Origin: Lingula anatina
Lineage: Eukaryota; Animalia; Brachiopoda
Direction: 5' to 3'
Assembly: GCA_051362555.1 (NCBI GenBank)
Contig: CM120646.1
Span: 3,038,001 to 3,102,000 of the forward strand
DNA length: 64,000 nucleotides
Shown here: in pieces, positions 1,429 through 48,262 of the stretch
How positions within the stretch are numbered: position 1 is the stretch's first letter
Layout of the letters: each line of letters opens with the position of its first letter
Made by a program: the position numbers and the translations under genes
The notes under the pieces: generated by a model
The model's database searches: none
What the model was told of the DNA's origin: nothing
What the model saw: the letters and a program-made list of their open reading frames with translations, nothing else

Positions 1429-4400
1429 TTAGCCGATGACTGGGCGAGAGTTCACCTGAGCTAAGGCAGCCAGTTGGGTCTTCTGGGCGTCGTCAAAGGC
1501 CCAGTACACCTTGCTAAGTGCCTTTGCCTGGCTAAGTGCCACCACACCTGGAAGAGAAAAAGTTTGTAAATGACTGCCAGTCCAAAGTCGATAGGACAGA
1601 TTTGGTGGGTTGATATTTTGAACACTGCTCACCAGTTCATGAAATGTCATTTTCATCTGCAGCCACAATGGTGCGCCGCAACCGTGAAAATAAATGAAAA
1701 TAGACTTTGGCATACACAGTGATACCTGATAACCTTTTAGAAAGCAAACCTCAAGCATGTAATACTTGTATCAAAATTATTATACAATATACTAATTAAA
1801 ATGTGATGATAATACTGTGATAACAAAATAAAAAGTGCACATTTGAAGTTAAAATAACATTCATATGAAGTAACCAAAGGGGGATACGAAAACACACCTT
1901 GAGAGGTGAGACCCTTTTCACATTGAACGTGGTACATTGCGAAATGAAGTATCACCCATACCCACCCCACACCCCACCCCCCGTAGCGCAATTACACGTC
2001 AAAACCAGTCAAACTGGTGCTGTTAAAAACCATAACGTTCCTTGTGAATGCGGTCTCAGGGAGCGTTCACAATGTAATTATCGTACTAGGTAGTTCGAAC
2101 TAACTCCGCGGGGACTTTCGTTGGACGCAATCAGATCAAAATATTAACACGCCTCCTGGCGCTCAGTTGGGTACAAGAACGTTGATGACTAATACGAGTA
2201 AGTTGAAAACAAGAGAAGGCGCGTTAATCTGTTAACCCAACTGAATTCAGTGAGAGTCCCAGCAGAGAACTACTTAGTACGACAGTTTCAATGTGAACGC
2301 ACCTTATCCCTTATACTGCTTTATCTGAGACAAGAATCGAACCACTGCCACGAACACATACATCCTTAGACTGGGCTCCCATGCCTAGATCAACTTAACC
2401 GGCTTAAATGCCTGTCACGCTTACCGAATCAGTTAGAAAGTAAAGATAAACACCCCCTAGCAGCTTTACTGGGCGTGACACACAATTAAGCCGGTTAAGT
2501 TGATAGCATTTTAGTGAGACTCTCCATGGAGATAGATCGATCCAAATATCTGTGGGAATGGTCCCTTACCTTCGTGGCGGCTGAGTGTTTCAGCCCACTG
2601 TACAATCCTGTCCTCCCTAGCCTTGTCTCCGTCCTTCAGCTTCCAGATCTCTGCCAGGATTTTGTCGTGGATCTCCAGGATGGCCTTCATGTCCTTGGTC
2701 TCCTCCAGGGTGGCGTTGTAAATGACCTGAATAGCGAGAACAGGAGTTTGGAGAATGTGGATGGTATTTTGGGAGGTGCTAAAATCACAGTTGTTGTGGA
2801 TTTGTGGATGATGTATTGTTATGTGGCTATGTAAAGTAAGTTTGCCATCGAAAATTAAGGTTGTTCATACATTTGTAACCTTCTTTGTGTTGTTTTGAGT
2901 GCCTTACCTGTATAGTTGTTATTGCGTATTTTCAAATTTGCGTTGATGTATATTTGTTAGCAGACGTAGATTTTCTTTGCTGTGGAAAGGATCTTACGAC
3001 CGAATATTAAACAATCTTCATTATGTTTTTAATAATTTAGTTCATATATACAATGATTTAGAAGAATCGGGGAACATCCACAGAATTAATGTACAAGTCT
3101 AAAAAATATTAAAACGTAGATTTCCCTGGGTGTGTTAAAGATTAAAGATTCTTACGAACAAATATTTTTAAATATATAGTGGTATGAAAAACAGGAGGTT
3201 TAATTTACAAATCTTTAAATATCTATTAAAACATGTCCATTTGACATACCCTTTTCTGTTCCTCTGTGCAAATATCTAGAAACTTTTTGAACGCGTCCCC
3301 CCTCAGTCCTGCCGCCTGGCCGATCCCAGAGTCGATCTTACTGTACGAACGGAAAGTGGCGAACCCGAAGTAATTAGCATATCGGGCAAGTTCGGTCCAC
3401 TTCGCCTGTTCCATGGTCGACGTGGCAAAGGTCATGGCTTTGGCGCTAAGATCACGGAGATTACCGGCGTGAGATGCGTCGCCGCTATGGGGACCCAGTA
3501 AGTCGCCGTGACTGTTGCTGGACGTGGTCTCGTTGTATGCGTACTCGCCCGTGCGGACTGGGAGAAGTAAAGCCCGTTGAGAATCAGTCATGCTGTTTAG
3601 CACGGCAACCATTGCTACGGCCTGGTCGTACCCGAGTTTACCTGGAAGAGATTGTAAGGCTTGGGGCTTGTTTCCATGGCCAATTGGTACTGTTTCAGAG
3701 ACAGTGTATGTACCACATGTATACTAAATTTCTCAGAGATATGTATGTTCCAGCTCACCGGTGATTTTTACTCACAAGTGATTTTGTATATGATACTTTG
3801 CTTTTTTTTCTGATTCGAAGATGAATTGGTCGTTTGCATGAGGATGTAGAATTATCATTACCCATTTCGATCGCAACTTTTGTGCAATAGCGTTTACTGG
3901 TGGTGTAAATATGAAAACCATAATAAGGAAAACCATAATTAGCAAATTCAACTCACCCTCCCAATAACCGGCCGTGGCAGTTTGGTTCAGGATCAAATTT
4001 TCGTCAATCTTGGCGCCCTTGGACTGTTTGAGTTTGTACAGCTCTTCAATGGCGATGTTTCTGGCGGTCATGTAATTAGCATCCATAGGTGCTTCTCTTT
4101 CCACAGCGTCCCAGAGAATCTGGCGCTGGTCTCGAGTCAGAATATCGAGGAAGGTGAGACCCACGTCGGCGCGAAGAGTCGCGGAAGACGCCAGATTGCT
4201 TCCTTTCCCGCCACGGTCAGCGTATCGGTAGTATCCGAAGGCGAAATAGTTGCCGACCTTGCCCTTGGGAAGGAATTGGATCTCGCGCAGCTGGAATGTC
4301 AGCCATGACACACCACGTGACGCCAAGGTTTGCATGAGGTCAACGTTCGAGAGAGTGAGGTTGCCACCAATGCTGAACTGTGGAGATTTGTCAATCCCAC

Positions 4401-4883
4401 CAAGCTTGGATGCTTGAAAACAAATAGGCTTTTGGTCAACATCTCCCCCAATTATTAGTTTAATTAATAGTGTAATGATAAGATAAGTGTCGCAGTAAAA
4501 ATTCTTACATGCACCCTTTTGCTTTTTAAATCAAACATAGTACACTAAAACTTACAATTGAATTAGGATATTCCCAATGACTAGCCAATCTTCAAAAACA
4601 CTATGTTCTTTCTCATACTCCGCAAAGAATATGTGAAATAGGAGTAAATATCAATTTGTAATATCCGTCCGAAAGCACTATGAAGGAGGCCTTGAGGAAG
4701 CATATTATAAAGCCTCAATAGGGTTGGACGATGTAAACCGAATTCAATGGAATTACCTCCTGAACCCTTGCCTCCGGTTCCTTTTCCGCCTCCTTTGCCG
4801 CCTTGGCCCTTGCCGCCTAGTCTCCCGCCAGCTGTGAGGGCGAGACCAACGATAACGAGAACTAGGGTAAATGTCGGTTGCAT
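1429..4883 (-). CDS. Secreted ~416-aa protein: signal peptide, (GGK)n tail, two tandem Spy/CpxP-like (LTxxQ) helical repeats; uncharacterised
   Basis: Seen: coding exons 4883-4757, 4412-3957, 3641-3250, 2726-2570 and 1547-1429, all GT-AG, intron phases 1,1,0,1. Total 1251 nt = 416 aa + TAA. An alternative in-frame ATG at 4901 adds MFKTNK, and the acceptor for that exon is at 4913/4914. N-terminus MQPTFTLVLVIVGLALTAG is signal-peptide-like, followed by GRLGGKGQGGKGGGKGTGGKGSG. Internal repeat: GNYFAFGYYR...LRADVGLTFLDILTRDQRQIL...EG...MTDSQRALL versus ANYFGFATFR...LRGDAFKKFLDICTEEQKRVI...EG...FDDAQKTQL. Minus-strand AATAAA at 1259-1254. Gene structure is well supported; the family assignment is inference. 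Confidence 0.88.
2060..2303. mobile_element. Foldback MITE, family B (PIF/Harbinger-like TIR), in the last intron of the secreted-protein gene
   Basis: Left arm GGAGCGTTCACAATGTAATTATCGTACTAGGTAGTTC pairs with the right arm (reverse complement GGTGCGTTCACATTGAAACTGTCGTACTAAGTAGTTC). Inner arms are also complementary. Flanks are TCA(G)/TTA. Homologous to 7764-8022 and 15900-15998. Confidence 0.75.
2389..2504. repeat. Short inverted-repeat element (19-bp perfect arms), probable MITE relic
   Basis: ATCAACTTAACCGGCTTAA (2389-2407) is the exact reverse complement of TTAAGCCGGTTAAGTTGAT (2486-2504); inner TGTCACGC/GCGTGACA also pair. Confidence 0.7.
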
Positions 4884-7763
4884 TTTGTTTGTTTTAAACA
4901 TATATCAAGGATCTGAAAATATAACGTAAAAGTTATGTATTGTGGATATGTATCTTTATCTCTCATTTAAGATTAGCTTTTCATTTCTAAAATACATGCA
5001 TGTATCTCATAAAACAACCTTTCAAAATTCATATTACGATGTTACAACATTAAAGACCTAATTTCGTAAAAAAATACACTCAATTTTTGTACAGAAAGTT
5101 ATAATCATCACAATTTTAGTTATATATATCGTTAATTTAAAAAGAAAGTTTCATGACTGCTCCCAAACTCTGCAATATACAATTAACTGTATCTAATACC
5201 ATTGATGTAACTGTTACCCCAACCTACAATGCAATTCCCGGCAGGTGCTCTGTCAGTGTCTGGTATGGTGTGTAGACCGCAGTATAAATGTCCTCGCCAC
5301 ATGGCGTAGGCACACGCGCAGAGAGGCCATTTCACACGCTGCCTACGTCGTTGCTATATCAACCGACCCACGTACACTGCTCGCAAGGTATAAAGGACTA
5401 AAAAGATTATCAGCACAGGCGGACCTGGGTTTCCACTGGGCAAAATCTGGAACGATCCACGTTCACTCCTTGGTCGGTCATGTTTACAAGGGATTGAGTC
5501 AATTTATGCATATGTTAACAGTGTAATTTTAGCAACAACCAGATCTCCCTGTTTCAGAGTCTACTTGATGAACTAGACGACATCCCTACCTGGGGAGCAT
5601 CGGCATTGCCTTGGGTTGTGTCCTTGGTTCGTACAGTACTTGTATACCACAATATGACACAGTGTAAACGTGGGTACGTCCAGGTCTTCTTTCAAACTCC
5701 TACGTCAAGGTCTTCTAGACGCCTTTGGGCAGTGTAGAGGAGGGGATAAGTCCTTATTTGAATTATTTGGTGTATTTAATATCAAACGTCATAATATAAT
5801 CTCATATATATCTTAATTAGTAGGTGGACATGGGCTTGTCATACTGTATTTCCGTAGTACTTTTTAAAACTGAAGAAAGAGACTACGAGATGGAAACTCA
5901 TTTATACCGAATTTGTCCTTTGCGCATTTAATTCTGTCCAAGGACAGAGGATACTAATGCGTATATTTTAGTAGCGTAATTAGCGCTATTGCTTCTTGGA
6001 TGAAGGGTACAAATACTCTTTGAGTAGTGCTGGGATTGTATTAATACGTTCACTCAGGTACAAACATTGTGTAAAACATAGACTCAAGAAGGTTTGTTCT
6101 ATTAGGACTGGGTAGCAGACCCCATTGTAATTCTTTACATCAAATAAATGTAATGTTAGTAAGTGACAGCATGCAGCGAATAAGAGCGGGGAGTGTTTTG
6201 TAGTGTTACTTTAGTTGATTGACACGACCTTATTGTACTTAAGCGAAGAATGTAATGTAGACGGGGAGAACGATATAAGAGGTTGAACGGAGAGGAACAA
6301 ACTGTAGATAGCGTAGTTAGAAAGCGATAATAAAGCATATGGAAAAACATGGAATTGTTTAGTTGTTACCTCGCGCCACCAAGACAAAGTCAGTAGCGTC
6401 GTCACATAGATCACAATCCTCTAAATAAATCTCTCTTTGGGGCGTTTGTTTTTTCTCTATTTTTTTACGAAAAAAATCTATTCACATTTCTCAGTATATC
6501 ATCCATGTAGCTTTCTAAAACGCAGTTCCTTGCATCCGGAAAACAACATTAACAGAGAACTATCAACAGTGCATTGCTCCTTTTATTATTTACGGGCCAG
6601 TGTACATAAACAGCCTTGTTTACGTCCAGGAACGAATCTGGATACCGAGTCGAAATAATGTCAAGTTAGCCAGGTTCAACAACTAACATTCACTGCATGA
6701 TTTATTGACACTTCAGATCAAGGTTTAGTTGTTGGACAGTCAATGCAATTCTTAACCGGGTTAAATAATTAAAGAAATGACCTTTCATGCAGTTATTCCT
6801 TACGCTGTATGAAGGTAATATTTGCAAGGCGGTTTAAATGACTCTAGTTGCAAATAATAACCTACAAACTGGTATTACTCAGGGGGGCGTTAATGCACTT
6901 TTGTCTCTCGCAGCCAAGCCGCTCTGAATGGTGAAGCCAGCAATATGTAAAGCAAGACGTGCTTTTGAGACGCGTTTTCAGGCATTTAGACTGTCATAGT
7001 GATGCAAGACACATATCTTTGCTATTATATGTCGTTTGGCCATTTCCTTTGAGCTATATTTAACAATAAAAACTTCATAGGCCCGCATGTATACAGCATA
7101 TGAAATAATGCGGTTATTGCCCTCTTCCTCTCCCCTAGAAAGTGAAGGCACGTGTACCCTCACATTCTGAACACACTGTATGCTGGCATTGTTGGGCTGT
7201 ATCGTTGATGTTCTTCACACACTGAAAGCAGCAGAAACAAGGCGCACACATACTGCAGAGCCACAAGCACAGTCTGTTTAAGTTAAAGCACTTAAGCTTG
7301 GCACACATGCTGGTAAGTCTTAGATTAAGCAGTCGGGTTATTTTATACCAGAGACTGTGTGAAATTAAGTTATTTGACCCTGTGAACAGCAACACCGCAA
7401 GTCAGCTGTTCAGTACTGTTTATAATTTAAAAGGGTCAAGGACGAAGGAATGCATGAAAACTATGATGCATGATGGTGGTAGCTAAATGTTGTAAATCAT
7501 AAATGGTTTAAAAACTGTAGAGAACAATTTTGTTCACTTTGCTGCTTTACTAAACGGAAGAACTAGACATAAACATGCATTCATGTTGTACATCTGGAAG
7601 ATGAGATATTTTCTCAAATAAATGAGGGTATTTCGGTGCTAAACGCTGAAAACGTACGCATTGCGGTTGTAAAATCGCGTTTACAGATGAAACGTTTTTA
7701 GTGACACCAAGGCGCTGAGTTCATCTCCACGCACTCATAACCTCTGCATATATCAGCGTCTTA

Positions 7764-8022
7764 GTACTCATTCCCAATGAAAGTACCGTTTTAAGTAGTA
7801 CAGATCGATCTAACCAACTCTGCTGGAACTCTCGCTGAATGCAATCAGGTTAGCAGATTTACACGTCTCCTCCTGTGGGGTCAGTTCTTTGGTAATCCGA
7901 AGGGTCCGGTATTCCGTAAAAGTTTATTGATGCGACAGCTGCATCAGTTGTGTAATTCAGCGAGAATCCGTGCAGAGTTGGGTCGACTCGCGTAGACCTA
8001 TAGTATCTTTAGGAATGGAGTC
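7764..8022. mobile_element. Foldback MITE, family B, with TTA target-site duplication
   Basis: TTA|GTACTCATTCCCAATGAAAG...AGGAATGGAGTC|TTA. Internal arms CTCTGCTGGAACTCTCGCTGAAT / ATTCAGCGAGAATCCGTGCAGAG match the copies at 2060 and 15900. A 3-bp TWA TSD is typical of PIF/Harbinger. Confidence 0.7.
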
Positions 8023-13865: not shown

Positions 13866-15899
13866 TCTGAGGTTGGAGAGGAATTTACTGCTTAGCGAGG
13901 TTTTATGAAACTGGACATCATCGTTTGAGTCCGTTGTCATGAACTTTCCTCGTGAACACCATAAAAGGAAAAGGTTGTTTCTTGTTTTTTCTCTAGCAAA
14001 CTTTAAACTAAAATACAGCTCGTTTTCTAAAAACCAACATGATTAGATTATTTTTCTTGTTACTGTAGTTGTAATAATAAAAAATTTTATCATTATTTTA
14101 CTGTGTAATGCGATTCAACTTTTTACACCCTCCTTTGGCAAAACCTGCCTGAAAAATAATATTGAATACTGAGTACTGTTTGTATTGTTTCATACATTTT
14201 TTTCTCCAACCATTATTATTGATTTAGTCGGCGTATCTGCTTACAAACCTATTTAAAAGCAACCCGATTCCCGATGTATCGATTTGGCACTTTTCGGGGG
14301 AAAGTTTTGCGTGTAAAGGGAGATATGATATTTTACATTTAATGAGTTTGCACCACAAGGTAACAGAATAGTTATCACATAAACCGTTTTTTTTTACTTT
14401 CAAGACATACACTGCACGTTAGAGTTTTATATACCAGGCATTGATTTTCCTGGCAAATTTCAACAATTCCCCCGCAATCAACAAGGAATATCTTATCGGA
14501 AACTGTTGCGAAAAATTACGATCTAAAACCCCGTTTTCTAGTTGTAAATTTCAATTTTTGCCAGTCTTCATCTTCATTACGAGTATACTGCTAAGTTAGA
14601 AATAAAGTTTGTTAAATTTGGGATACCTAGTACCAACAGATAATATATATTTACACCGATATTTATCCCAACTGTGAATATAAAATAACGTCCTCGTGTT
14701 GGAAAACATGATTTCGCTTAATGGAGATTGATCGAAAAAACACACTTAATCACATTTAGTACAAATACTTATATCTGATCATCTACATAATCGGCGGAAT
14801 GGGCAAATATTGTATACAATGCACAAAACACGACAGGTTGAATGTGAAATAGAAAGCTCCTTTGAACAGAGAATAAAGAGCGGTGCATCCCTTTCTTCAT
14901 GGTACCCTGAGTGTGTTGTAATCTTGTTTACAGCACGTGGCACGCGCCCGTCCTCGTGCAATAAACAAGTTGCATGTGACTGTGAGTGTATGACTGCTAG
15001 TGAGTCATGAACACAAATCACTACATCCATTCATTCTGGACTGTGTCCTGCAATACGACCAGTAAACTGGTACCTTCCGCCTATCGCATGTGGGTTCTGG
15101 CCATTGTGGCTGCTGAAGACGTGCCCCCGTGACTCATTACCATAAAACTCCGGCTTGTTTTGCGTTTTCTTTTTTTTTTTGCGACACCCTACTGAAAAGA
15201 CTTGATGGAAATCTTGATGGAAATCTGCGACAAATTATCTGTATCAAGTTTGAGATAATACACTGTCACTCTTGCGATGAACACACACCAGGAGTCCGCG
15301 AGATGTGATCAAGACAAATACCGCGAGAGGGTGGCGGTGTATTATTTGACATATATTCCCAGAGAAAGTACCTGTATTTCACCGAAAAACCCCTAAAATA
15401 CCCCTAAAACCGAATAAAGCGTGTATCGCCACAGTCACATAACATTTCAAGGTGTCGTGATATCAGCTTTCTACTTTCTGCCTATGATGCCACTATAAAC
15501 CACGAAGACGGCATGCTTCAAGAAGTGTACCGATACCCTTGGCTTTGCCCTCTACTCGTATTCGACATATACATGTATGTTTACTATGTGCCCCTGTGAG
15601 AGAGACACAGTGTGAGTAATGACTGACTGACCCCTGTACAAGCCACTAATGACCACTGACCGATAATGCAGTTGACTTAGCACACAAATAGTCAGATTAA
15701 TCGGTAGCAGGCATTGGAGCCGTGCATTAATATTGTATTCAATGCACTACAGGGTGGGATTGACTTCCAGGAAAGAAGATAAGAGAGTGGATGTCTTAAA
15801 ACTATTGAATGAGCCCAAAATACATCCCACCTTTCTTCTTTACTCGTCAGCATGTCATTTTATTAAAATGCTGGCGTTGAACAGTACTTTGGAAATAAC

Positions 15900-15998
15900 A
15901 GAAGGCGTGTTAATTTGTTAAACTGATTGCATTCAGCGAGAGTCCCCGAGGAGTAGGATCGGTCTACTTAGACCGATAGTTTCATTGGTAATCAGTAC
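15900..15998. mobile_element. Family B MITE, right arm
   Basis: GAAGGCGTGTTAATTTGTTAAACTGATTGCATTCAGCGAGAGTCCCC...TTTCATTGGTAATCAGTAC is the reverse complement of the left arm of the 7764 copy. Confidence 0.7.
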
Positions 15999-31508: not shown

Positions 31509-32837
31509 TGGTCAATGCTGTAAGTGTGATACATGATCACCAGTGACTACAACACGTACAACCTTCTGATTAGGATCAATTTAGACCTTCATTTGTCTAC
31601 TTAATTGCTGACCACGTAATCCACACTTCTGAATTTAGATATAAGGGCCGATTGAAATTTGACCTCGACGCATTTTTTTACCGAACATTGATGCATAGAA
31701 AATCTAAATTGTATAAGATGATACCATTTCCTTTGATTGCCTATGTACTTGAAGAAGTCATGTTCACACCACATCGTCTATATTAGTAAGTACATAAATT
31801 AAATTACATAATATATGTGTCTTTAACAGCGAGCCACACCGCTTTTTATGAGAGCTAAGCGCTCCAGATACCAATTTCGAATTGCGGTTTTTGTTTAAGG
31901 TTTATCCTGACAATACCTTGGTTTTTGACTACGTATGTATGCGGTTTTCACCAGGTTTTAATCGGGTTTCTTATCGGTTTATTGCTCTAAAACTGCACTA
32001 ACTTAAATAGCATTTGGTGAACGAAAGTCCCTGTTGTCTAACCAGTGCTAGGACGCATGCGCAACCATCCAATTTTTTCATTGTGATGAAAACAAGTGGA
32101 TATCCATTGACATTTCGATGCGAATTATTAAAAAAAATTCTTCACAAATTGTGAAGCCACGCTTTTTATCTGAAATGCATACATCAAAGGGTACCGTCAT
32201 ATAGTGATAAAAGCACTGAACTACTTCTACATTAGCCGTTTCTTTATTCGATAAACCATTCGGACCTGTTACGTCGATGATGCGATGGCACTGTTTAGTA
32301 ATCGAATGGAGAGTGCAGTTAGGAAATTAAATATAAAAGTCTGATGAGGTTTTGGGAGTCAGCGGTAATGATCGGCGTTGGCAATAAGTCAGATATGAGT
32401 GCATTGGCTATATATTGGTATCCGCCAACTCGTTATATTCTCATTAGCCCAGCGAATAAGGGATTTTTGGGAGAGAGGTGGGGATAGATACATGTATGTG
32501 CATTTAGATAACCACATGTAAGGTGTTAAAATCGTTCTGCAGGGGATGCTTAGTAAAGCGCACTGCAAAAATCGAATGACTGAAAAAATACTCGACCATT
32601 TTTCTATTACGTATATGTAATCATACGGGAATAAACTCCTTTTTGTCATTTGATAATTTTATTTGATGAAATAGGAAAATGGCAAATAATTGATTACCAA
32701 CTATATGAAAATGAAAGGGGATCTCTCTAAACAATGGTTACTATTGCAGTGAAACATATAAAAGCATATTCCTTAAGTGGCTCTATGTAAAATACGTGCA
32801 CTCTTCAACTTCTTTGTATTTTTTTCACATTCAGAAA

Positions 32838-35800
32838 ATGACAGATTCAAAACAAGGGCAGGATCAGGAAGAGGACAACGACCTCGACTTCGACACAGAA
32901 ATTCCCGCCTTACCCCCAGATGGAGGCTACGGCTGGGTCATACTGGTTGCGTCATTCTTTTGCAACGTCTTAGTAGACGGCGTGTGCTTTTCCTTTGGAA
33001 TATGGTACGTGGAGTTTCTGGCAGAGTATGGAGACAGCAAGAGTAAGACAGCCTGGGTGGGCTCGGTCCTCAACGGCATGTATCTTACCATGGGTGAGTA
33101 TAGACGTCGCCACCAATCTTTTCCTTTACGTCAGACGTCACTGGTGGCGGTGCCATTTTCAAACTTTTATTTTAGCGTTAAACATTATGATATTCATTAC
33201 AGTCATGCACCTACGCTCTGTAAAAATACGCACACACATATACACACAAACACAGGCACTTAATTTCAAACACATTTACACACTAAGACAAACGCCCTTG
33301 CACGCACACATTTCAACACGCGCACACGTGCACAGGAGCTTGAGCACTGGTTGACAATACATATGTCCAACATTTGTCAGAATTTAAATGCATTTTTCTG
33401 TTGTGTTTTCAAGGTCCGGTGGCCGGGGCACTATCAAACAGATATGGCTGCCGCAAGGTGACCATCGCCGGTAGCATCATCTGTGCTATAGCGTTCGCAC
33501 TCGCAATATTCTCACCCAGTGTCTCGGTTTTAATTATCGTCTACGGAGCACTAGGCGGTACGTCACACTAGTATATGCAGCAGCAATCATTGGCGTCGTT
33601 ATACCATTGAGCTCTTATTTGGGAGCACAATCTCCCGTGATTAACATAACACTTTGAGTTTTGTAATACATACGTTGTACTAATATCACTACTGTCAAGG
33701 AAACGGTTAAACAACAGCCTGTCAAAGTGAAGTTAAGCCATTTAATGTATGTAATTAACTACCCTGTTCATAATTACAGTATGGCTGTATCAGTTATGGT
33801 TTAAAGGAACGTTTCATTTTTTACCAAAATGTTGTTAAAATGTTGCATATTAGAGGGATTTTATCTTCAACAATTGCATGTTGTACATTGTAAATGACAC
33901 CTCATGTTGGTTACACTTTACCTTCGCGCTACTATGAGTTTTACTTTCTTTTGGGTAAATATATTGTTCACTGCCCTTTTTTCTTGATTTCCTGTATATA
34001 TTCAGCTGATACATATATTGTAACATCATTTTCTACAAAAACACACGTATTCTTTTCTGGGTTTTCAGGATTTGGGTTCGGTCTGATGTACCTACCGGCC
34101 ATTGTTATGGTAGGCTTCTACTTTGAAAAAAAGCGTGCGTTTGCCACAGGCATCGCCGTGTGTGGGAGCGGTGCAGGAGCGTTTGTGTTTGCCCCATTAT
34201 GCAAGGCACTTATAGACAACTTCGCGTGGCGAGGGGGCACCTTGATAGTTGCCGGGCTAGTCCTCAACGGCAGCGTCCTTGGCGCCCTCTTCCGGCCACT
34301 TGGGACCGAACCACGTAAAAAAGTCCTAGACGTCGAAATGGAGGACTTTTCCGAGAAAGAAACCACAAAAATTAAGAAGCCGGACAATGCTTTACAAATA
34401 GTGGAGAAAAACGGGCGTGATTTGGACATTAAAGACATAAGCTCGGCACCTGTGATAAATATGGACAATGGAAGTCAGAACTTACGGCGGCCAAGGGGTG
34501 TCTCTTTTGACGAACCAACGCGCCCAGCGACAAAGTCTCGTGCTGGCCCAGGCGGCAAACCTATCCCAAAAATATTAGTTCAGGAGTACGCTGACAAAGA
34601 ACATGCAAATGGTGACAGTAGCCCAACCGGAAGACCGCATCACGTGGTCACAACCGTGGAAGAGATCAACGCATCGCCCGTAGGGAGTCAGACATGGCGA
34701 ATCAGCCAAAGCTCCACCTCTATCCGCAGTCATTTACAGCGTCCCATGTACCGCAAAGACATCTTCTACAGCGGAAGTATCTTGCATCTCCCGGAGTACC
34801 AGCAGAGCACGTCAGTGGAGGACTATATTAAAAGTACGACGTCACTTCCGCCGGCAGTCCCACGGGTGGAACCTTACCTATGCAGATTTATCCCCGAATC
34901 CATGCGCGATATTCTGATGGAGATGATGGATGTTTCTCTACTTAAATTGCCCCCTTTTACATTGTACGGCATATGTTGCTTCTTTTCAATGGTCGGTAAG
35001 TTATGCTGGCATATATCAGAATGATATCTTTTTGTTATATTTTAAGGGGATTTAGCCCCGGGGTATTTTAATTAAAGTATCAGACACATAAGACTTTAAC
35101 ATTTCGTGATTTAATCTTAGCAATTGAATGCTGAGGGTGATTCTTATAATATAAAGACATTCGTCATTGGATACGTTAATACCAACGTATAATAAGATGG
35201 AGTCTTATCATCTATAAATGGCAAGTTTGCTAAGCGTGATCAATAGAATTTTCTAGTATCATTTAGGGCCATTAATTCGCTATCTTTGCAGAGAAAATTG
35301 CAATAAATCCATCACGCAAGGTAGTTGTCAACTATGGAAACGGAATTCTGATTCAACGCATTTTACCTCAGCAAGAAGTGACGATTATTTGAATATTTAG
35401 GGTACTTGCTTATTCTAGAATATGCTCTTTTATATGTTTTGAATAAAATTTTAGGTTTCTTCATTCCGTTCACATACCTTCCCGACTATGCGCAATCAGT
35501 TGGGGTTCCAGGAGGGGACGCCGTGTTCCTACTATCCATTATAGGAATATCAAATACTGTAGGCCGTATAGCCTCTGGTATGTATAATTTTTGCTTGTAC
35601 GCATTTCTTGATTATAGTATGTAGCATCACAGGGGGAAATAAACTTGATAACTTTCATATGTCATCAGTTTTTTATATATAAGATCACTATATCCTGGGT
35701 AACTTCATTCATTTATTTTGCTGCCATACCAGCATGTCAACTCACTTCCTAAGGCCTGCTCTAAGCCCAGTGATAATAAGGAGTTTAATTTCCCCATCAA

Positions 35801-40375: not shown

Positions 40376-42355
40376 GGATTATTTTTTCATTGTTTTCATT
40401 TTATACTTTTATGGTATTCATAATCGTAACAGATAATAATAATAGTTTTGATGCATGACAAATGGCTGGCGACTCTGATATACAAATGGCAAAATGGACT
40501 GACAGAATGACATTGATAATAACTAGTTTACAAATATACAAAATGTACTTTATATATGTAGGTGCTTCTTGACGCCTCACTGTTTTGGTTAAACGCAATG
40601 TATCTTTCAGTTTTTTTTTATCATTTGAACAGGTTTCCCCATGTTCTGTTTATATATAACCCTGTTGGGAACAAAATCGCCAACTGGCGACTAAAATTAT
40701 ACCTGTTGTGTGTCACGACAACATGGTTAAAATACCATCAACATCCAGAGTAACAATTGCATTGGATTTTTCTTTAAAAATGTGACATACTCATTATGTT
40801 ATGCGACCATGAGTTTGTTAAAGGCCTTCACAAGTATACATACAAATATAATTCATCCACTTGGTCTTTTTTTTACCAAGTGCAAAAAAAAGAGCATTTA
40901 ATGGCATGCTTTTGGTAATTGTGTACAGATTCAAAGGCAACAGGTAATGGAAAAAATATACGACCAAACTATCGCCACTGAGTATGACTGAAGTTTAAAC
41001 TTCATTAAAAAATGAAATAAATTTTAAAATCGTAATACAAAAGAGGGCGCTCTGACACCTAGAGCATCACATCGTGTTGGTTGATAAGATTGCGCGAGCA
41101 CTGGAATAAGAAAGAGTTCTTCTTTTATGACACTGAGAGCTCGTGCCACGTTCAGTTGAGTACCTTAGAATAAAGTGAGAATTTTACGTTCAATGGACAT
41201 CAATGCAATGTTACCCTCGGGCACTTCCTTCAACATAATACAGAAAATGAGATCATTGTGAAATAAACTATACATAATAATGTACACATAAGTGTGGTAA
41301 ATCATTAAATGTCGACTTCACCATAAGTCTTGCTACTGCTGTCCCTTTAGAAGTGGAATCTATTCTACATAATCCCCCATTTTTTCTCTTTCTTTTTGTT
41401 CATATAGGAGCACCTTTGTGAAATAAAATATCCGACAAATTGTTTTCTTTTTAACAGGTTATGGCTACATATACTCCTCAACATCAGTATGATTAGAAAA
41501 AAAATATTCCTTAACGAAGTACTAACATATAACATGTCAAAACAAAATTAAGGATACTACCACATAATTGGTATAATATCAGAAAAGTATACTGTGGCGT
41601 ATACGAAAACTAATGGTCTTTCCATGAACTTTTGTTAACTAGATATTAATGAAAGTATCACCGCATTCTGGCTTGCGAGAATCACCCCCCTCCCACTCAA
41701 CTTCAACCCCCAAACCCACACCCCCGAACCCCTAACCCCTTATACTTTGGCAAATCACACTTCGTAACAAGTCGAGTGAATTCGGTCTATTTCGGCATAT
41801 TCCGTCCAGCAGAATACGGTGATATGGCAGTGGTTTTCACCTATACAGTCGTATACCAATTATAACAATACATATAAATGTGCCTAATTTTAGAGGCATT
41901 TTTATCCAACCTTAAAATATTATCATTGGCGCTCTGTGAATAAAAATGTTGTTTGACATCTTTGTACTCCTTATAGGAGAGCAGCAACCAACGGTTGCAC
42001 AACGTTTCGACGTAAACCTCCATAACGTCTGTTCAATAATGTACCTCTCGCCCTGTAATGACCTCATTGGAGGCCAAAAAATATACGTCATTGTGCTGTG
42101 AGGAAAATGCAAAAAGAACGTTAGCATTTCGCTTCACTCCAACTGAAATGTCCGCTTTAAATATCTATTCTGAACACTTGAAGGTGGCCATTGAACACTT
42201 GAAATAGGTTCTTGCTCAATCGAAGCGGCTTTGTGGCCAGACACGCTGTAAAGAAAATCTGGTTCTTCATCACAGGCAATAAAATGTGGAAGAACCACCC
42301 GACTCACAAAACGTCTTTGTGTCACTACGTTTAACTTGCAGGCACCTTCGTTTTT

Positions 42356-45300
42356 TTACATGACGGATTCCTTGGATAACAGCACTTCCACTTCTTTCAC
42401 TTCCCCCTCTTGCGGCACGTAGAGACCCTGCATTTTTTCCAGATGTTCTTTAGGAAGTTGAATGGTAATGTGAACTGGGGCTGCGGCACCGGAACACTCG
42501 CCTTTCTCTATTTTGCCATAACCGTCTGTGTATTCCATTCCCCTTTTCTTTTTGTCTGAGAGTTCCCAGTTTCTAATTATCCTCAGTGGCAGCACCAAGA
42601 GCCCGGACAGCGCGATAAGAGTCCCCGCGGCGTAAAATGCATCGTCCAGACTGCCGCTGCTGTCGAATATCTTACCTGTAATTAAAGAACAACAAATTGG
42701 GGATTAGCTTCATTAGTCGCCATTTACTGGTAAAAATATAAATGAAAGCGGAATATATTTCTGCGCTAATGCTCTCTTTTTATTAATCAAGTCGACATAG
42801 ATCATTTGGACCCCAGCGTGCCAAAATTACACCAAAATTGCTACAAGAATACCATTTTCTAATTTTTGCACTATTCTTTGTTAGTTCATATTATCTCCGA
42901 TTAAAAACCACCGCGATATTATATTCAATACAACTACCTCCTCAATTATCATATATGACATTGTTTTTCGCGGATTAACGAGATGTATTTTTCATTTCAA
43001 TGATAAAGAATTAAGGGGCTATCACTTACCAGCAATAGGCGTTCCCACCATGGCCGCTACTCCTTGGAGAAGTATGAGAAGGCCAAATGCATTGGTCAAC
43101 TTGTCCAGTCCCAGGAGGTCAACCAGAATTATTGACCGCAATGATACAAAGGGGGCTGAAATAAAAATAGAGAACAGACTTATTAACCGCAATAATACAG
43201 GAGGTGATAAAAAAGCGTACAGAAATATTAACTGCTATAATACAAAAGGGGCTAAAAATAGAGACCAAAACCACTAATCGAGAAGACACAAAAGAGGCTG
43301 ACATAGAAGAACAGAGTTATGAACCACAAAAAAAAAAAAAAAAAGAAAAAAAAAAATATAAAAGGGGTTAAAAAAGAGAAACGTGACAAAGCTATTTTAT
43401 AACACTAAATCCAATACACAGTTACAAGTTATTTCTACCCAAATAGTAATGGTTATAATAACAGCAGTTAACATGGGGGAAATGGACACCTACCTGTAAA
43501 AAGCCCAAAGGCCACTGAATAGACCACAAATTGCGTATAGATACTCCAGAAAGGGAACAAGTCGTTGAGTTTCGGACACACTGCAGTCATGACTCCAGCA
43601 ATGATGAGGAAAACACCGTAGATTTTGAGTGAATCTGCCCAGGGGCGGTCCGACACGGCACCAGATAGGCCCCGCCCTATGGCGTTGGCCACGCCCATCC
43701 AGGATATGAATTCCACGGCTTCTTCGTACTTGATCTCCTGTTGTATCGCCATAATTGGCACGAACACGTAAGGGATGAAAAAACCTGAAAATATATAACC
43801 AATTAATGTTTGATTACACAACAACTCACGAAATGAATACACAAGAAGGAAAGCGTTTTCGAGCTTAAAATGTTTGCAAGTTTCCATCTTCCAACGTTCA
43901 CGAGTAAGTTACCTAGAACTAGCAGTCACAATATCTTAGCTCTGCCGTTGAATTATTAGAAAATAGATGATTTTATTTCTCATAGTAAGATTTAAATGCA
44001 GTCATTATTTTCAAGCACCAAGACTCATACAGAAAGCTAGCGACGGAGTTTTTTGGAGCTGCACTTACCCATCGTACTCAACAACGTAGAAAGGCACAGG
44101 ATAGGGAAAGTGATGTTCTTGAACAATGACAGGTCCAACATCTCCTTGATGACATCAAATATGGGATTGTGATGCACCACAGGCACGTGTGTGACACTCT
44201 TTAGATACTGCTGCAGATCATTGTGAGCCGCCTGAAACTGTGGAAGGTGCGCCACGCTGCCATTGAAGAAAATATCCCTCCTGTAGAGAGGCCGTGCCAT
44301 GTCTTCCCGTTGTTGCTCTTCTTCCTCTGGGTTTTCCGATGTGTCCCCGTGCTGTTGCCAAATTTCTTCGGTTTCGGAAGACGCATGCTGTTGGCTGCCG
44401 CTTGGAAGACTTTGCGTGCTGGAATAGCCGCTAGATGGCGACATCTCCTTATCGTCATCCGAGGATTTATAAGTCAACATGTGTGGTTGTAGCGACATAG
44501 TGCTTCCTGGGTTCAAACCAGAAGGTGTACAATAAAACCGACTTCGTTCAAGGACCTCTACCAGTGGTTTATTCTTTATTGCTACTGACCGATTCATCTG
44601 TCCCGTACAACTGAGACTAACGTCCGCCGGATTTACCGGTAAAATTGAGGGTCTGGGTTTAGGTTTTTTGTGAACCGTTTCATCGACAGCGATGATAAGC
44701 TGCACCAAGTCTTTATTTCGAATCAATCTGTTGTCTTTTGTGATAATTGTATTGTCTAAAGAATGCGTGGAGATAGTCCTTTGCCTTTTCTTTTCCGCTA
44801 TCAGTTTTGTCATAATATTGCCACGGTAAATAATAATTGGTTTCCTTTTCTTGCGCTTTGGTACGTCTAGTGGCCGAAAGAGGGCGGCACAAATCACGAT
44901 CTGCAAGACAATCCCTGCTACAAGTACGAGTCCACCTCGCCAGTGGTATTCCTTGACGAGTTTGCTAGAGAGCATTGGAAAAACAATGATTCCGACCCCA
45001 GATCCCGACACTGCAATACCGGTGGCCAGCGCCCTCTTTTTCTCGAAGTAAAACCCCACTATCACGATGGCGGGGAGGTAGATTAGGCCAAACCCGATGC
45101 CTGGAAAAATTAAAGGGTTTTTATTAGCAAAAAGTTTCATCTTATCAAACCATAACATAATACGTGCTGTTTGTCTTGCGAACAATTTCTTTCTGCTAAA
45201 ACCGTATTCTATTTCTAGATAAGTGGCGGCCGTAATTAATGGCACAATCCAAATCTGTTCACACACCGTACGTGTAGTAATGCATCTACATACATATATT

Positions 45301-47052
45301 AGTAATCGACGGTCATTAAACCTCCCAAATTACCACATAAAACGTGCAACCGGGGAACTCTCACACACTCCACGTTAAAGTACGATCATTGGCCAATAAT
45401 TGACAGATGATGCTACATGTATATAGAACATAAAAAAACCCATGCCCGCCAAGAATGCATTCAAAGGGCATGATATATTACGATAGTGGCGGTACATTAA
45501 ACCGGTTTCCAGGAGAAACCAACGACCCTGACAGGATAACACGAGAGCTCTCTCTCCACTCACTGGACCCTGGATTTTACAGCCTTTTTATATCTTGTCT
45601 ACAGGTAATTGGGCTTTTTTCATAATGCAGCTAGATCTGCTCTTTAAAATCGGGGCGCTTGAGAATTAAGCACTTAATTCGTTTGCTTTACCAATACTTA
45701 GGTCATGTACAAATGTAGCCTGCACATGTTAGCCGGATTTTCCCGCAGAATATTAGCTGGGTGATCAAATGATGTATTGTTGGCTTTTTTGATTGCCGTA
45801 TTTTTAAACTGTGAGTGCTGGGTGCGTGTTCAAAACGTGGCTGGTTACTAAGCATGGGATGAAGGACAAATGAGAGAGGATGTGTGGATGAAAGGCAACT
45901 ACATGTTCCCTGCAAAGACTAACTAAATTTACTCTTCAGAGGAACTTATTCTACATGGCTAGAGCTCCTATCACCAACCTAAATCACACAAGGGGGCGCA
46001 TGTGCATCCTTTGAAGCGAACAGGCATTACGACTAAGATTACAATGTATAACTCAACTAGAACTAGCCAATATTTTTGGTCCAAAATGTTAAGAATAAAT
46101 CCTTATGTAAAAATGCAAACAGCACAAAAAACAGTGACAACAGTTCATTGTCAATTAATCCTGCTATGTTATGTCAGCTCCCCCTAAAATACTGCACAAA
46201 ATCACACTACTTTCAAAAATTTGTAAGAGCCTACTAGCGCACCCTTTGGCCAGAGAGTAAATTAATGCCATCGCCTCACCTCCAATAACTCCGTATGTAA
46301 GAATTAACCAGTTTAAGTTGGTGGTCAGCGTACTGAGGAGGAAGGCCACGGTCGCCATCACGGCGCCGGATATCGCCACCATACGGCACCCGTAACGGTT
46401 CGCCAGCGCACTCGTGATGGGCCCTGAAATTAAAGAGAAAGAAAATTAATTGATGACATCATATCAAGTTTTTTATTTGTCATGTCGAATTATTTAATTT
46501 TTTAGTAAACAACCACTTCTATTCGAAGTAGTATAGTCATCCAATAATGTTAATGTGTAATATTAAAAACAGAATAAATTATTATTAATACTTACGAGTT
46601 GATGAGTTTCCTTTTTTTTTCTTTTTTTTTTTTGTGAAAAAGAAAACCACCAAGAGATATACCAATCACATAAGTACGTATAGAAGGATGCAAAGTGGAC
46701 ACAATGCAGAAATACATTTCCATCTGCATCTACGACATTCTTGACTCGTGAAATTGATTCCTTTTACAAAAACGTCACTATGGTCAGAAAGAGGGCGCCA
46801 GCGTTACTCACCCATAAGGAGATAGCACCCCGTGAGGCAGGAGCCGGCCCAGGCCGTCTGCTCGGCCGTCGACTCAAAATAATGCATGAACTCCAACATG
46901 AAGATCATGAAGGAAAAACTCACGCCGTCCACCACCACATTGCACATGAAGGACGCCGCCACCACCACCCACCCCCACCCTCCGTCAGGGGGTACGGGGG
47001 GGCCTGGAACCTCCGCATCTTCGTCCACAAAAACCCGCCTTTTAGCACCCAT
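42356..47052 (-). CDS. SLC16 / monocarboxylate-transporter family protein (MFS, 12 TM), paralogue B, 717 aa
   Basis: Exons 47052-46812, 46423-46280, 45100-44069, 43784-43494, 43155-43030 and 42675-42356; all GT-AG, phase 1; 2154 nt. Motifs [40 protein letters not shown] and [12 protein letters not shown]; ends ...KESVM*. The acceptor upstream of the ATG at 47061-47062 implies 5' UTR exon(s). Confidence 0.95.
43131..43275. repeat. Degenerate triplication of the intron-4 acceptor / exon-5 start of MCT-B
   Basis: Three ~48-bp units begin ATTGACCGCAATGATACAAAGGGGGCTG / ATTAACCGCAATAATACAGGAGG / ATTAACTGCTATAATACAAAAGGGGCTA. Confidence 0.75.
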
Positions 47053-48262
47053 GTTCTATTCTGGAAAACAGAAACAGAAAAAGTTTAATGAAATATATTC
47101 CAGGGATATTATGTTACGGATCATTTCGTTCGTTCAATTATATGTAACATCCCTGGTGACATCCGTGTTCGATTCTGAAAAATTAAACGTTTAATGTTGT
47201 GACATTTTATAGGAGGTAACGTGAATATCTATCAAACATTTCAAGCTACTGAATTGGATCTAAAACTGCCATTATCACATTTTAAAATAACTTATTTCCA
47301 ACAATGCATTTAACTTGAAATAAAACACTACACACAAGAGAGAGAAAAAATTATATATAACCGTTTCTGACAAGTCTTAAGCCGTTCTATATCATTTTCA
47401 ATATTGAAAATAAATAGCTAAGGACACGCACAAGTGACAAGATGGTCAGGTCACTTTTTAACACACAACTTGACTGTCCTGAACCCGTGCCGTTACCGTG
47501 GTCTACTTCACCTATATGAACCTTGTCTGAATTCAGTTTCATAACATAAAAAAACTAATATATATAGCTACCGTGCACGGAATCCTATACACGCACCTCC
47601 GTCCATAATGGAGTTCATTATGTGGCCGTACTAATCTGATTGGTATCAAACCCTAAGTACTGAGGTTGTGCCACATGGACTAAATCCACCGACCCTAAGC
47701 TGAATTACTTACAGGATACTTCGCCCTCAGTCCACGAGAATAGGAAAAGTCCGTTCCAACATCGATATAACTCGGTTGTCTAACAGTTTCGTATATACAT
47801 GTGTATTAACTATCTACATAACTCGTGTACGTCCGCTAGCTGCTCACACAATTGTAATCTGGGGCAACCTATCCAGGGTTGTGCATCTACAGTGCCCGTA
47901 ACTCTCTCGCTCTCTCGTTCTGCATTCTGCGCACCCTTCACATCCAGACACGTGCGTATGTATATCAGTGTATATATATATCACTAGAATTAAGTATCTG
48001 ACCTCAACGCCCCTCTTTTCCGAAAGTGCCTAGCTAGGTTTATAACTAATGGTGACATTCAGCTGCTCGACATTTGTAAACTTAATACAACATACCAACG
48101 ACGATTGCACTCTATACTTAGTACCCGGTACATAATGAAAACGTACAAACGCCATTACAATTTTTAAACTGAACTACAATTCCATGTTGATGCCAAAGAA
48201 AAATATGTCTAAATCTAGTGTCTGTGTATCGTAAATTAGTAAAAGCCTCCTTACGCCCTTAC

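Follow-up and report, generated by a model that had tools for sequence, protein, structure and literature searches.

Whether a spliced animal gene can encode a member of the Spy/CpxP/ZraP superfamily, regarded as bacterial and associated with the cell envelope, and what its product would do in an animal, is the question raised by a minus-strand gene of the brachiopod Lingula anatina. The coding region lies at positions 1429 to 4883 of a 64,000-nucleotide stretch (GenBank assembly GCA_051362555.1, contig CM120646.1, positions 3,038,001 to 3,102,000; hereafter the window). The analysis favors, with a probability of roughly 45%, the reading that the gene is spliced, transcribed, and likely transferred and that it encodes a secreted protein with a self-filled cradle, which would most likely bind specifically to a small anionic ligand or to a partner.

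The kinship with the Spy/CpxP/ZraP superfamily had been proposed in a first-pass annotation made from the sequence alone, and it is very probable. The Pfam LTXXQ model (PF07813) matched the Lingula protein with an E value of 0.0065 and 17.6 bits, below the gathering score of 24.3, which was reached by 9 of 75 homologues. At E <= 0.01, LTXXQ or Metal_resist matched at least 30 of these 75, and 10 of the 75 were above a cutoff. Single exons produced no noteworthy match in Pfam or NCBIfam, and a single-sequence search of the Protein Data Bank (PDB) returned no match. For the family profile, Spy was the best PDB match (E = 0.004), the alignment running between the two LTxxQ motifs. This match is concordant with the structural matches, the scores of which were modest, and argues for homology to Spy. 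The AlphaFold2 (AF2) model, based on 92 sequences, had a mean predicted local distance difference test (pLDDT) score of 85 and a predicted template modeling score of 0.85. It was nearly wholly helical, as had been predicted, and consisted of two equal helical repeats, with low confidence at residues 1 to 43. In the structure search with the whole model, CpxP ranked second (Z = 5.5, 99 aligned residues, 3.4 Å), CnrX third (Z = 5.2), ZraP fourth (Z = 5.1), and Spy 11th (Z = 4.7); the first rank was taken by an ABC transporter with a Z score of 6.6 and a root mean square deviation of 7.3. With repeat 1 alone (pLDDT 90), ZraP was first (Z = 6.9, 79 aligned residues, 2.6 Å) and CnrX second (Z = 6.7, 99 aligned residues, 3.9 Å). 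Foldseek placed NccX/CnrX at ranks 1 to 6 for repeat 1 (E = 0.3 to 0.9) and returned only poor transporter matches, with template modeling (TM) scores under 0.2, for the whole model.

Repeat 1 (amino acids [aa] 64 to 227, window 3544 to 4350, minus strand) and repeat 2 (aa 251 to 410, window 1450 to 3474, minus strand) share 25% identity over 157 residues (E = 8e-16 in a single comparison). They had been described as homologous units of about 150 aa; the homology stands, but each unit is about 160 aa long, and only about 92 aa of it (aa 134 to 225 and 319 to 410) form the Spy-like hairpin. The hairpin is preceded by an insert of about 55 residues that is missing in Spy, composed of a helix (residues 65 to 81 and 250 to 268) and a PxGK/R..YFGF..R segment. 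All motifs quoted in the first-pass annotation were found in the product, including NYF(A/G)F, which sits in the insert and thus has no counterpart in Spy. The insert is the best-conserved region of the family (conservation of 0.63 and 0.54 at its motifs versus 0.36 to 0.40 in the hairpin helices), and in the model its helix at residues 65 to 81 and its motif are confidently folded (pLDDT largely 84 to 96). The LTxxQ positions are L134/Q138, M212/Q216, C319/Q323, and F395/Q399, and the four glutamines are 93 to 98% conserved among 86 family cores. Both repeats matched the family repeat profile, which includes repeat 1 itself, with 143 and 70 bits. The hairpins are net acidic, with 11 Lys/Arg versus 13 Asp/Glu residues in the first and 14 versus 16 in the second. 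A hydropathy scan, which is not a signal peptide predictor, detected a hydrophobic N terminus at residues 4 to 19, in agreement with the signal peptide claimed earlier; no other segment among the highest-scoring windows was hydrophobic. The protein is therefore predicted to be secreted.

Mean-field coupling analysis of family cores detected antiparallel couplings between helix 3 and helix 3′ (Y192-E371, G195-A370, K196-E363, and Y199-L355). This is the pattern expected of a Spy-like dimer in one chain, indicating that the two Spy-type repeats very likely pack as the single-chain pseudodimer suggested in the first-pass annotation; the AF2 model and reciprocal insert couplings point the same way. 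Insert helix 1 was coupled to repeat 2 (G76-F315, Q70-K313, and L80-Y392) and insert helix 2 to repeat 1 (F130-A263, L131-S260, and A145-L259); the top coupled pair was Y98-A370. At z >= 4.5, the two cross-repeat blocks contained 4 and 6 pairs, versus 1 and 0 in the same-repeat blocks, which were used as the coevolution control because shuffled pairing also strips shared ancestry. In the LTxxQ-anchored mapping, Y392 corresponds to Spy Y104 and A145/V146 correspond to Spy positions 45/46. In Spy, the client Im7 is bound in a concave pocket whose lining includes Y104 and M46, Y104 crosslinks to Im7, and the concave face is described as positively charged (PMC3910116). The cross-repeat insert couplings to positions equivalent to this client pocket suggest that the cradle is probably filled by its own inserts, swapped between the repeats. 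At several helix 3 positions, those matching Spy 86, 90, 93, and 97, most family members have Gly, Ala, or Ser.

A narrower family profile identified 77 genome loci in the 47 of 64 parts scanned. Two loci were archaeal by title and the others bacterial, spanning Chloroflexota, Bacillota, Bacteroidota, Planctomycetota, Verrucomicrobiota, and others. Gene context was counted in the 71 loci where the open reading frame caller recovered the gene; these are top matches of one subfamily and not independent. Purple-acid-phosphatase-like genes were present in 36 of the 71 loci, a response regulator and a kinase together in 27, a PEBP gene or fusion in 17, and an ECF sigma factor in 5. A recurrent operon was observed, consisting of a response regulator, a HAMP kinase, the two-repeat LTxxQ protein, often PEBP, and then one or two purple-acid-phosphatase-like genes (L007:3606-11419, L012, L013, L016, L018, L030, and others). 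It occurs across Chloroflexota, Bacillota, Bacteroidota, Patescibacteria, and others, and no published description of it was found. Ordinary single-repeat Metal_resist/LTXXQ genes lie near two-repeat genes at L076:300-791, L014:4020-4523, and L060:2556-3053. Among the 75 homologues, fusions to cytochrome c (6), PEBP (6), sulfatase (3), gluconolactonase-like (3), di-heme peroxidase (2), and multicopper oxidase (2) domains were detected. Fusion proteins in the family include P0140, a dinoflagellate fusion of sulfatase, multicopper oxidase, and the two repeats, and P0015, a fusion of the two repeats with a multicopper oxidase.

The function put forward, at slightly less than even odds, is the binding of a specific ligand. 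The two Spy-type repeats are predicted to fold as a single-chain cradle, and the PxGK..YFGF..R loop and the insert helix, swapped between the repeats, would lie over its concave face. The binding site would consist of K94, F101, R105, R160, R281, and F286, which are conserved Lys/Arg or aromatic residues, and the ligand may be phosphate- or sulfate-like, as suggested by the bacterial gene neighbors alone. The open Spy-like cradle acting as a chaperone or metal binder, as envisaged in the first-pass annotation, was not supported, because the insert likely occupies the client face and no His, Met, or Cys ligands are conserved; general chaperone activity or CnrX-type metal binding appears less likely than specific ligand binding. 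In Lingula, which has a calcium phosphate shell, the protein might handle phosphate or polyanions after secretion; in this scenario, a chaperone cradle closed by duplication and a domain-swapped insert would have been linked to bacterial phosphatase operons and would have reached a brachiopod, a dinoflagellate, and a raphidophyte by separate transfers. This scenario is improbable. XP_013399577, the RefSeq counterpart of the protein, is not in the Lingula shell-matrix list of XP accessions in supplementary data S1 of PMC13425148. The supplement of PMC4595640 contained no match to the peptide or to family words, but its identifier type is unchecked and it therefore does not exclude the gene.

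Of the alternatives, the one that survives best, while still unlikely, is a transferred extracellular ATP-independent Spy-like chaperone, in which the inserts would be a movable lid and the clients would be secreted enzymes. The Spy-type hairpins with their four conserved LTxxQ glutamines are consistent with it, as are the fusions of bacterial relatives to many secreted enzymes. The bacterial gene also often adjoins a two-component system (both genes in 27 of 71 loci), as cpxP does (PMC6737893), and a precedent for a movable lid may be seen in the N terminus of Spy, which enters the cavity and releases clients (PMC9122904). However, an insert that is confidently folded, better conserved than any other region, and coupled to the Spy client-pocket positions argues against a chaperone, and the hairpins are not basic.

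The origin of the gene was considered in light of its relatives. A phmmer search over 1.84 billion representatives gave 170 matches at E <= 1e-3, only 2 of which were at E <= 1e-30: the Lingula protein itself and P0007, a Logan protein of 406 aa on a 1,793-nucleotide (nt) contig with 42% identity (E = 5e-74). The remaining matches shared 20 to 33% identity, and word-indexed searches with the Lingula sequence returned only itself. P0007 has Gly/Lys-rich repeats in the linker between its repeats and not at the N terminus, and it lacks a signal peptide, perhaps due to 5′ truncation. It may represent another animal member of the family or, alternatively, the closest relative of the donor. Among 29 homologues looked up, three carried a taxon label; one was from an Opitutales metagenome-assembled genome (MAG), and the others were from Biecheleria cincta, a dinoflagellate, and Heterosigma akashiwo, a raphidophyte. 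With a 92-sequence profile, 711 proteins were matched, and the rows naming an organism (8 of the 120 listed) were all bacterial. In the Atlas, the five feature rows listed were 100% bacterial and the top structure row was a bacterial cluster (TM 0.70). Two repeats were present in 348 of 359 matched proteins, four in 3, and one in 8, which were fragment-like; Atlas bacterial clusters of 182 to 186 aa may be true single-repeat forms. The two-repeat bacterial relatives mentioned in the first-pass annotation were thus found. One four-repeat form, P0008 (MCG8528853.1) from the Opitutales MAG, is a possible intermediate for an apparent swap in repeat order.

The family is sporadic even in bacteria, since even samples of further genomes contained it in 7 of 400 (phylum of a Verrucomicrobiia locus), 7 of 400 (Pirellulaceae locus), and 0 of 400 (Bacteroidales locus) cases. 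A metagenome scan with the Lingula/P0007 pair yielded 1 distant locus in 596 stretches (45 of 64 parts), and viral contigs yielded 0 of 72 in one scan and 3 marginal loci in another. The top viral fold match was BFVD entry A0A1C9C581 (probability 1.00, E = 0.014, TM 0.70 by target, 9% identity), an uncharacterized Heterosigma akashiwo virus 01 protein of 220 aa; the host alga of this virus also carries a family member (P0104), and a giant-virus route for the fold is conceivable. Among taxon-labeled matches, there was no other animal protein; animal genomes were not searched directly, and P0007 may be animal. No literature on the accessions or peptide of the Lingula gene was found; the LTXXQ papers listed named no animal member in the title or the start of the abstract, and among the papers listed on horizontal transfer in Lingula or on tandem Spy/CpxP proteins in eukaryotes, none concerned the gene. 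The two-repeat, insert-bearing LTxxQ family, for which no published description was found, comprises hundreds of uncharacterized prokaryotic proteins.

Since the named relatives are mostly bacterial and the family is patchy, a horizontal origin from a mainly prokaryotic family is likely. In the phylogeny, the Lingula protein and P0007 formed a long-stemmed pair (support, 100/99) without a close sister. The two algal proteins did not group with Lingula: that of Heterosigma fell with the large bacterial subfamily (100/99), and that of Biecheleria was placed near it (86/89). The per-repeat tree suggested an opposite repeat order in the Opitutales-containing clade and a separate duplication in the cytochrome c-fused clade. 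After nine rows were reordered and 16 of 46 omitted, the Lingula pair together with P0015 joined the Opitutales-containing clade (96/92); the reordering was chosen post hoc from the earlier tree, the tree is unrooted, and there is no such placement without it. P0015, the best match of which is the dinoflagellate protein, was placed as sister to the Lingula pair with weak support (90/69 and 81/53). The simplest reading is repeated transfer from a mobile prokaryotic family, and an algal intermediate is possible. Of the proposed bacteria-to-animal transfer, the horizontal origin is thus upheld as probable, but the direct route is not proven, because two algae carry members and P0007, the closest relative, is without a taxon label.

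Vertical inheritance of an ancient eukaryotic gene, followed by its loss from most lineages, or gain of the gene from an alga and not directly from a bacterium, would fit the occurrence of members in B. cincta and H. akashiwo, the long Lingula branch, on which named relatives share at most about 30% identity, and the position of P0015. This is nevertheless improbable, although an algal intermediate is possible. Forcing Lingula, P0007, Biecheleria, and Heterosigma together was rejected by the approximately unbiased test (P = 2.6e-5), which was devised after viewing the tree and in which P0007 is without a eukaryotic assignment. The grouping of the Lingula pair with the Opitutales-containing clade once repeat order was corrected also argues against it, as does the lack of any other named animal protein among the matches.

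Less probable still is a transferred metal sensor or buffer like CnrX/NccX or ZraP. The metal ligands of CnrX and ZraP are His, Met, and Cys. ZraP, CnrX, and NccX were the top structural matches of repeat 1, Metal_resist matched several homologues (one above the cutoff), and fusions to cytochrome c, di-heme peroxidase, and multicopper oxidase would suit such a role, as would H345, which is shared by Lingula and P0007. However, no column conserved at >= 60% among the 86 family cores has a majority of His, Met, or Cys, and there is no His in the hairpin or the insert of repeat 1.

Several observations weigh against the preferred reading of a transferred protein with a self-filled cradle that binds a specific ligand. 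The structural scores were below Z = 8 (range, 4.4 to 6.9), level with unrelated helical hairpins, and no Foldseek match was obtained at E <= 0.001. The coupling analysis comprised 337 cores (effective number, 224) with one bacterial subfamily dominant, motif coupling was seen for repeat 1 only, and cavity occupancy was deduced from coevolution only. The operon context is that of a subfamily lying far from Lingula, and the sole locus of the clade nearer to Lingula (L079) has none of those neighbors. Two of the three taxon-labeled homologues are eukaryotic, the look-ups covering 29 of 149 listed homologues. Residue 345 is His in Lingula versus Arg in 95% of the family, and several family glycines are absent, so the Lingula protein may have changed function. 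The literature searches returned no experimental work on a member of the family.

Splicing in silico of the five coding exons gave a single 416-codon frame with one stop at the end. All features of the gene are on the minus strand. Coding exon 1 (4757 to 4883) encodes the predicted signal peptide (aa 1 to 19) and a Gly/Lys-rich low-confidence linker; exon 2 (3957 to 4412), most of repeat 1; and exon 3 (3250 to 3641), the end of repeat 1, the linker, and the repeat 2 insert, exons 2 and 3 being supported by the frame and read coverage. Exon 4 (2570 to 2726) and exon 5 (1429 to 1547, including the stop codon) continue the open frame. The four coding introns are GT-AG: intron 1 (4413 to 4756; 344 nt, phase 1), intron 2 (3642 to 3956; 315 nt, phase 1), intron 3 (2727 to 3249; 523 nt, phase 0), and intron 4 (1548 to 2569; 1,022 nt, phase 1), which carries host repeats. 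A GT-AG intron of 315 nt in the 5′ untranslated region (UTR) (4913 to 5227) follows a noncoding exon (5228 to 5400), for which the support is the 4912-5228 joint together with the read depth of X4 and X6. The 3′ UTR (1150 to 1428) is based on read depth in X4, X5, and X6; the outer ends of both are approximate. The GC content was 0.55 in the coding sequence versus 0.31 to 0.42 in the introns. The sole match to the exon 2 search was L. anatina LOC106165768 (XP_013399577.1, uncharacterized, 416 aa), the gene of which is on a 451,553-nt contig. The window product differs from it at 9 of 416 residues, 4 of them within the first 7, and thus the spliced product with four introns annotated in the first pass was corroborated. 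An in-frame ATG six codons 5′ of the annotated start (4884 to 4901), within the spliced exon, could lengthen the signal peptide. No second copy was found in the window by tblastn.

RNA evidence was obtained from 8 of 9 listed runs, assigned by species label, with 6 to 30% of each run's reads. In X4, X5, and X6, reads covered the exons and left the unique intron parts bare, and first mates were nearly all on the plus strand, as expected of minus-strand RNA in stranded libraries. Exon depth was low in X7, X8, and X9, and X1 and X2 had no exon reads. Spliced transcripts were present, with joint reads at three of the four coding introns and the 5′ UTR intron: 7 for intron 2 (3 in X4, 4 in X5), 33 for intron 3 (8 in X4, 17 in X5, 7 in X6, 1 in X8), 6 for intron 4 (5 in X6, 1 in X9), and 4 for the 5′ UTR intron (X6). 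No intron 1 joint was among the listed read joints, and this intron rests on the RefSeq model, with which it is consistent, and its GT-AG borders. Among the rows listed, 10 of 12 coding differences in exonic reads were silent.

The miniature inverted-repeat transposable elements (MITEs) reported in the introns were confirmed as two inverted-repeat elements in intron 4. One MITE-like element (2060 to 2303) has 37-nt inverted arms, and part of it recurs at 15899-15987. The other, with 32-nt inverted arms (2389 to 2504), adjoins a multicopy repeat (together 2389 to 2568) that attracted hundreds of reads from other loci, continuing into unlike sequence, in all eight runs. Other copies or relatives of these elements lie at 2209-2267, 7809-7986, and 15899-15987. 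The linked SLC16 genes are real and in the window: two convergent SLC16/monocarboxylate-transporter-like genes of the major facilitator superfamily, at 32700-35100 (plus strand) and 42300-47200 (minus strand), had human MCT1 as the best match (E = 2e-17 and 2e-10), but they are about 28 and 39 kb from the gene. No Pfam family was found for 69 further open frames in the window. That this is a real host gene, as the first-pass annotation held, is practically certain. Contamination or a dead relic, in favor of which the gene is a singleton in 90% clusters and five of the eight runs had no or few exon reads, is effectively refuted by the spliced reads and made untenable by the five GT-AG introns, the intronic host repeats, the SLC16-like genes, the independent RefSeq record, and the silent variants.

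The protein resembles Spy/CpxP (PF07813) in its two LTxxQ motifs around a long helical hairpin, its antiparallel long-helix packing, its predicted export, and the frequent location of its bacterial relatives beside two-component systems. It differs in that Spy and CpxP are single-repeat homodimers, whereas the Lingula protein has two repeats per chain, each with a conserved insert, as well as net acidic hairpins, a PF07813 score below the cutoff, and an animal host. CnrX/NccX and ZraP (Metal_resist, PF13801) are the best single-repeat structural matches and likewise have an N-terminal helix packed on the hairpin; in the Lingula protein, however, this helix appears to be donated by the other repeat, the family lacks conserved His, Met, or Cys, and the hydropathy scan indicated no membrane anchor. 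The bacterial two-repeat proteins (e.g., WP_341471924.1 of "Candidatus Chlorohelix allophototropha" and MCG8528853.1 of the Opitutales MAG) have the same repeat unit and insert motif, with 20 to 30% identity over both repeats, but are annotated as hypothetical or Spy/CpxP-like and often domain fused, and the repeat order is apparently reversed in the Opitutales-containing clade. A precedent in Lingula for an intron-bearing secreted or surface protein of bacterial origin is msp130 (PMC11878542), which has an unrelated fold, is widespread in bilaterians, and is linked to calcification, whereas the Spy-type gene is not in the checked Lingula shell-matrix list. A spliced and apparently selected animal member of the Spy/CpxP/ZraP superfamily is unexpected, and it leads to hundreds of uncharacterized prokaryotic proteins that share a new architecture, in which a cradle formed by one chain likely has its inserts in the client site. 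This family could show how a promiscuous chaperone fold turns into a specific binder, with a possible role in brachiopod extracellular chemistry.

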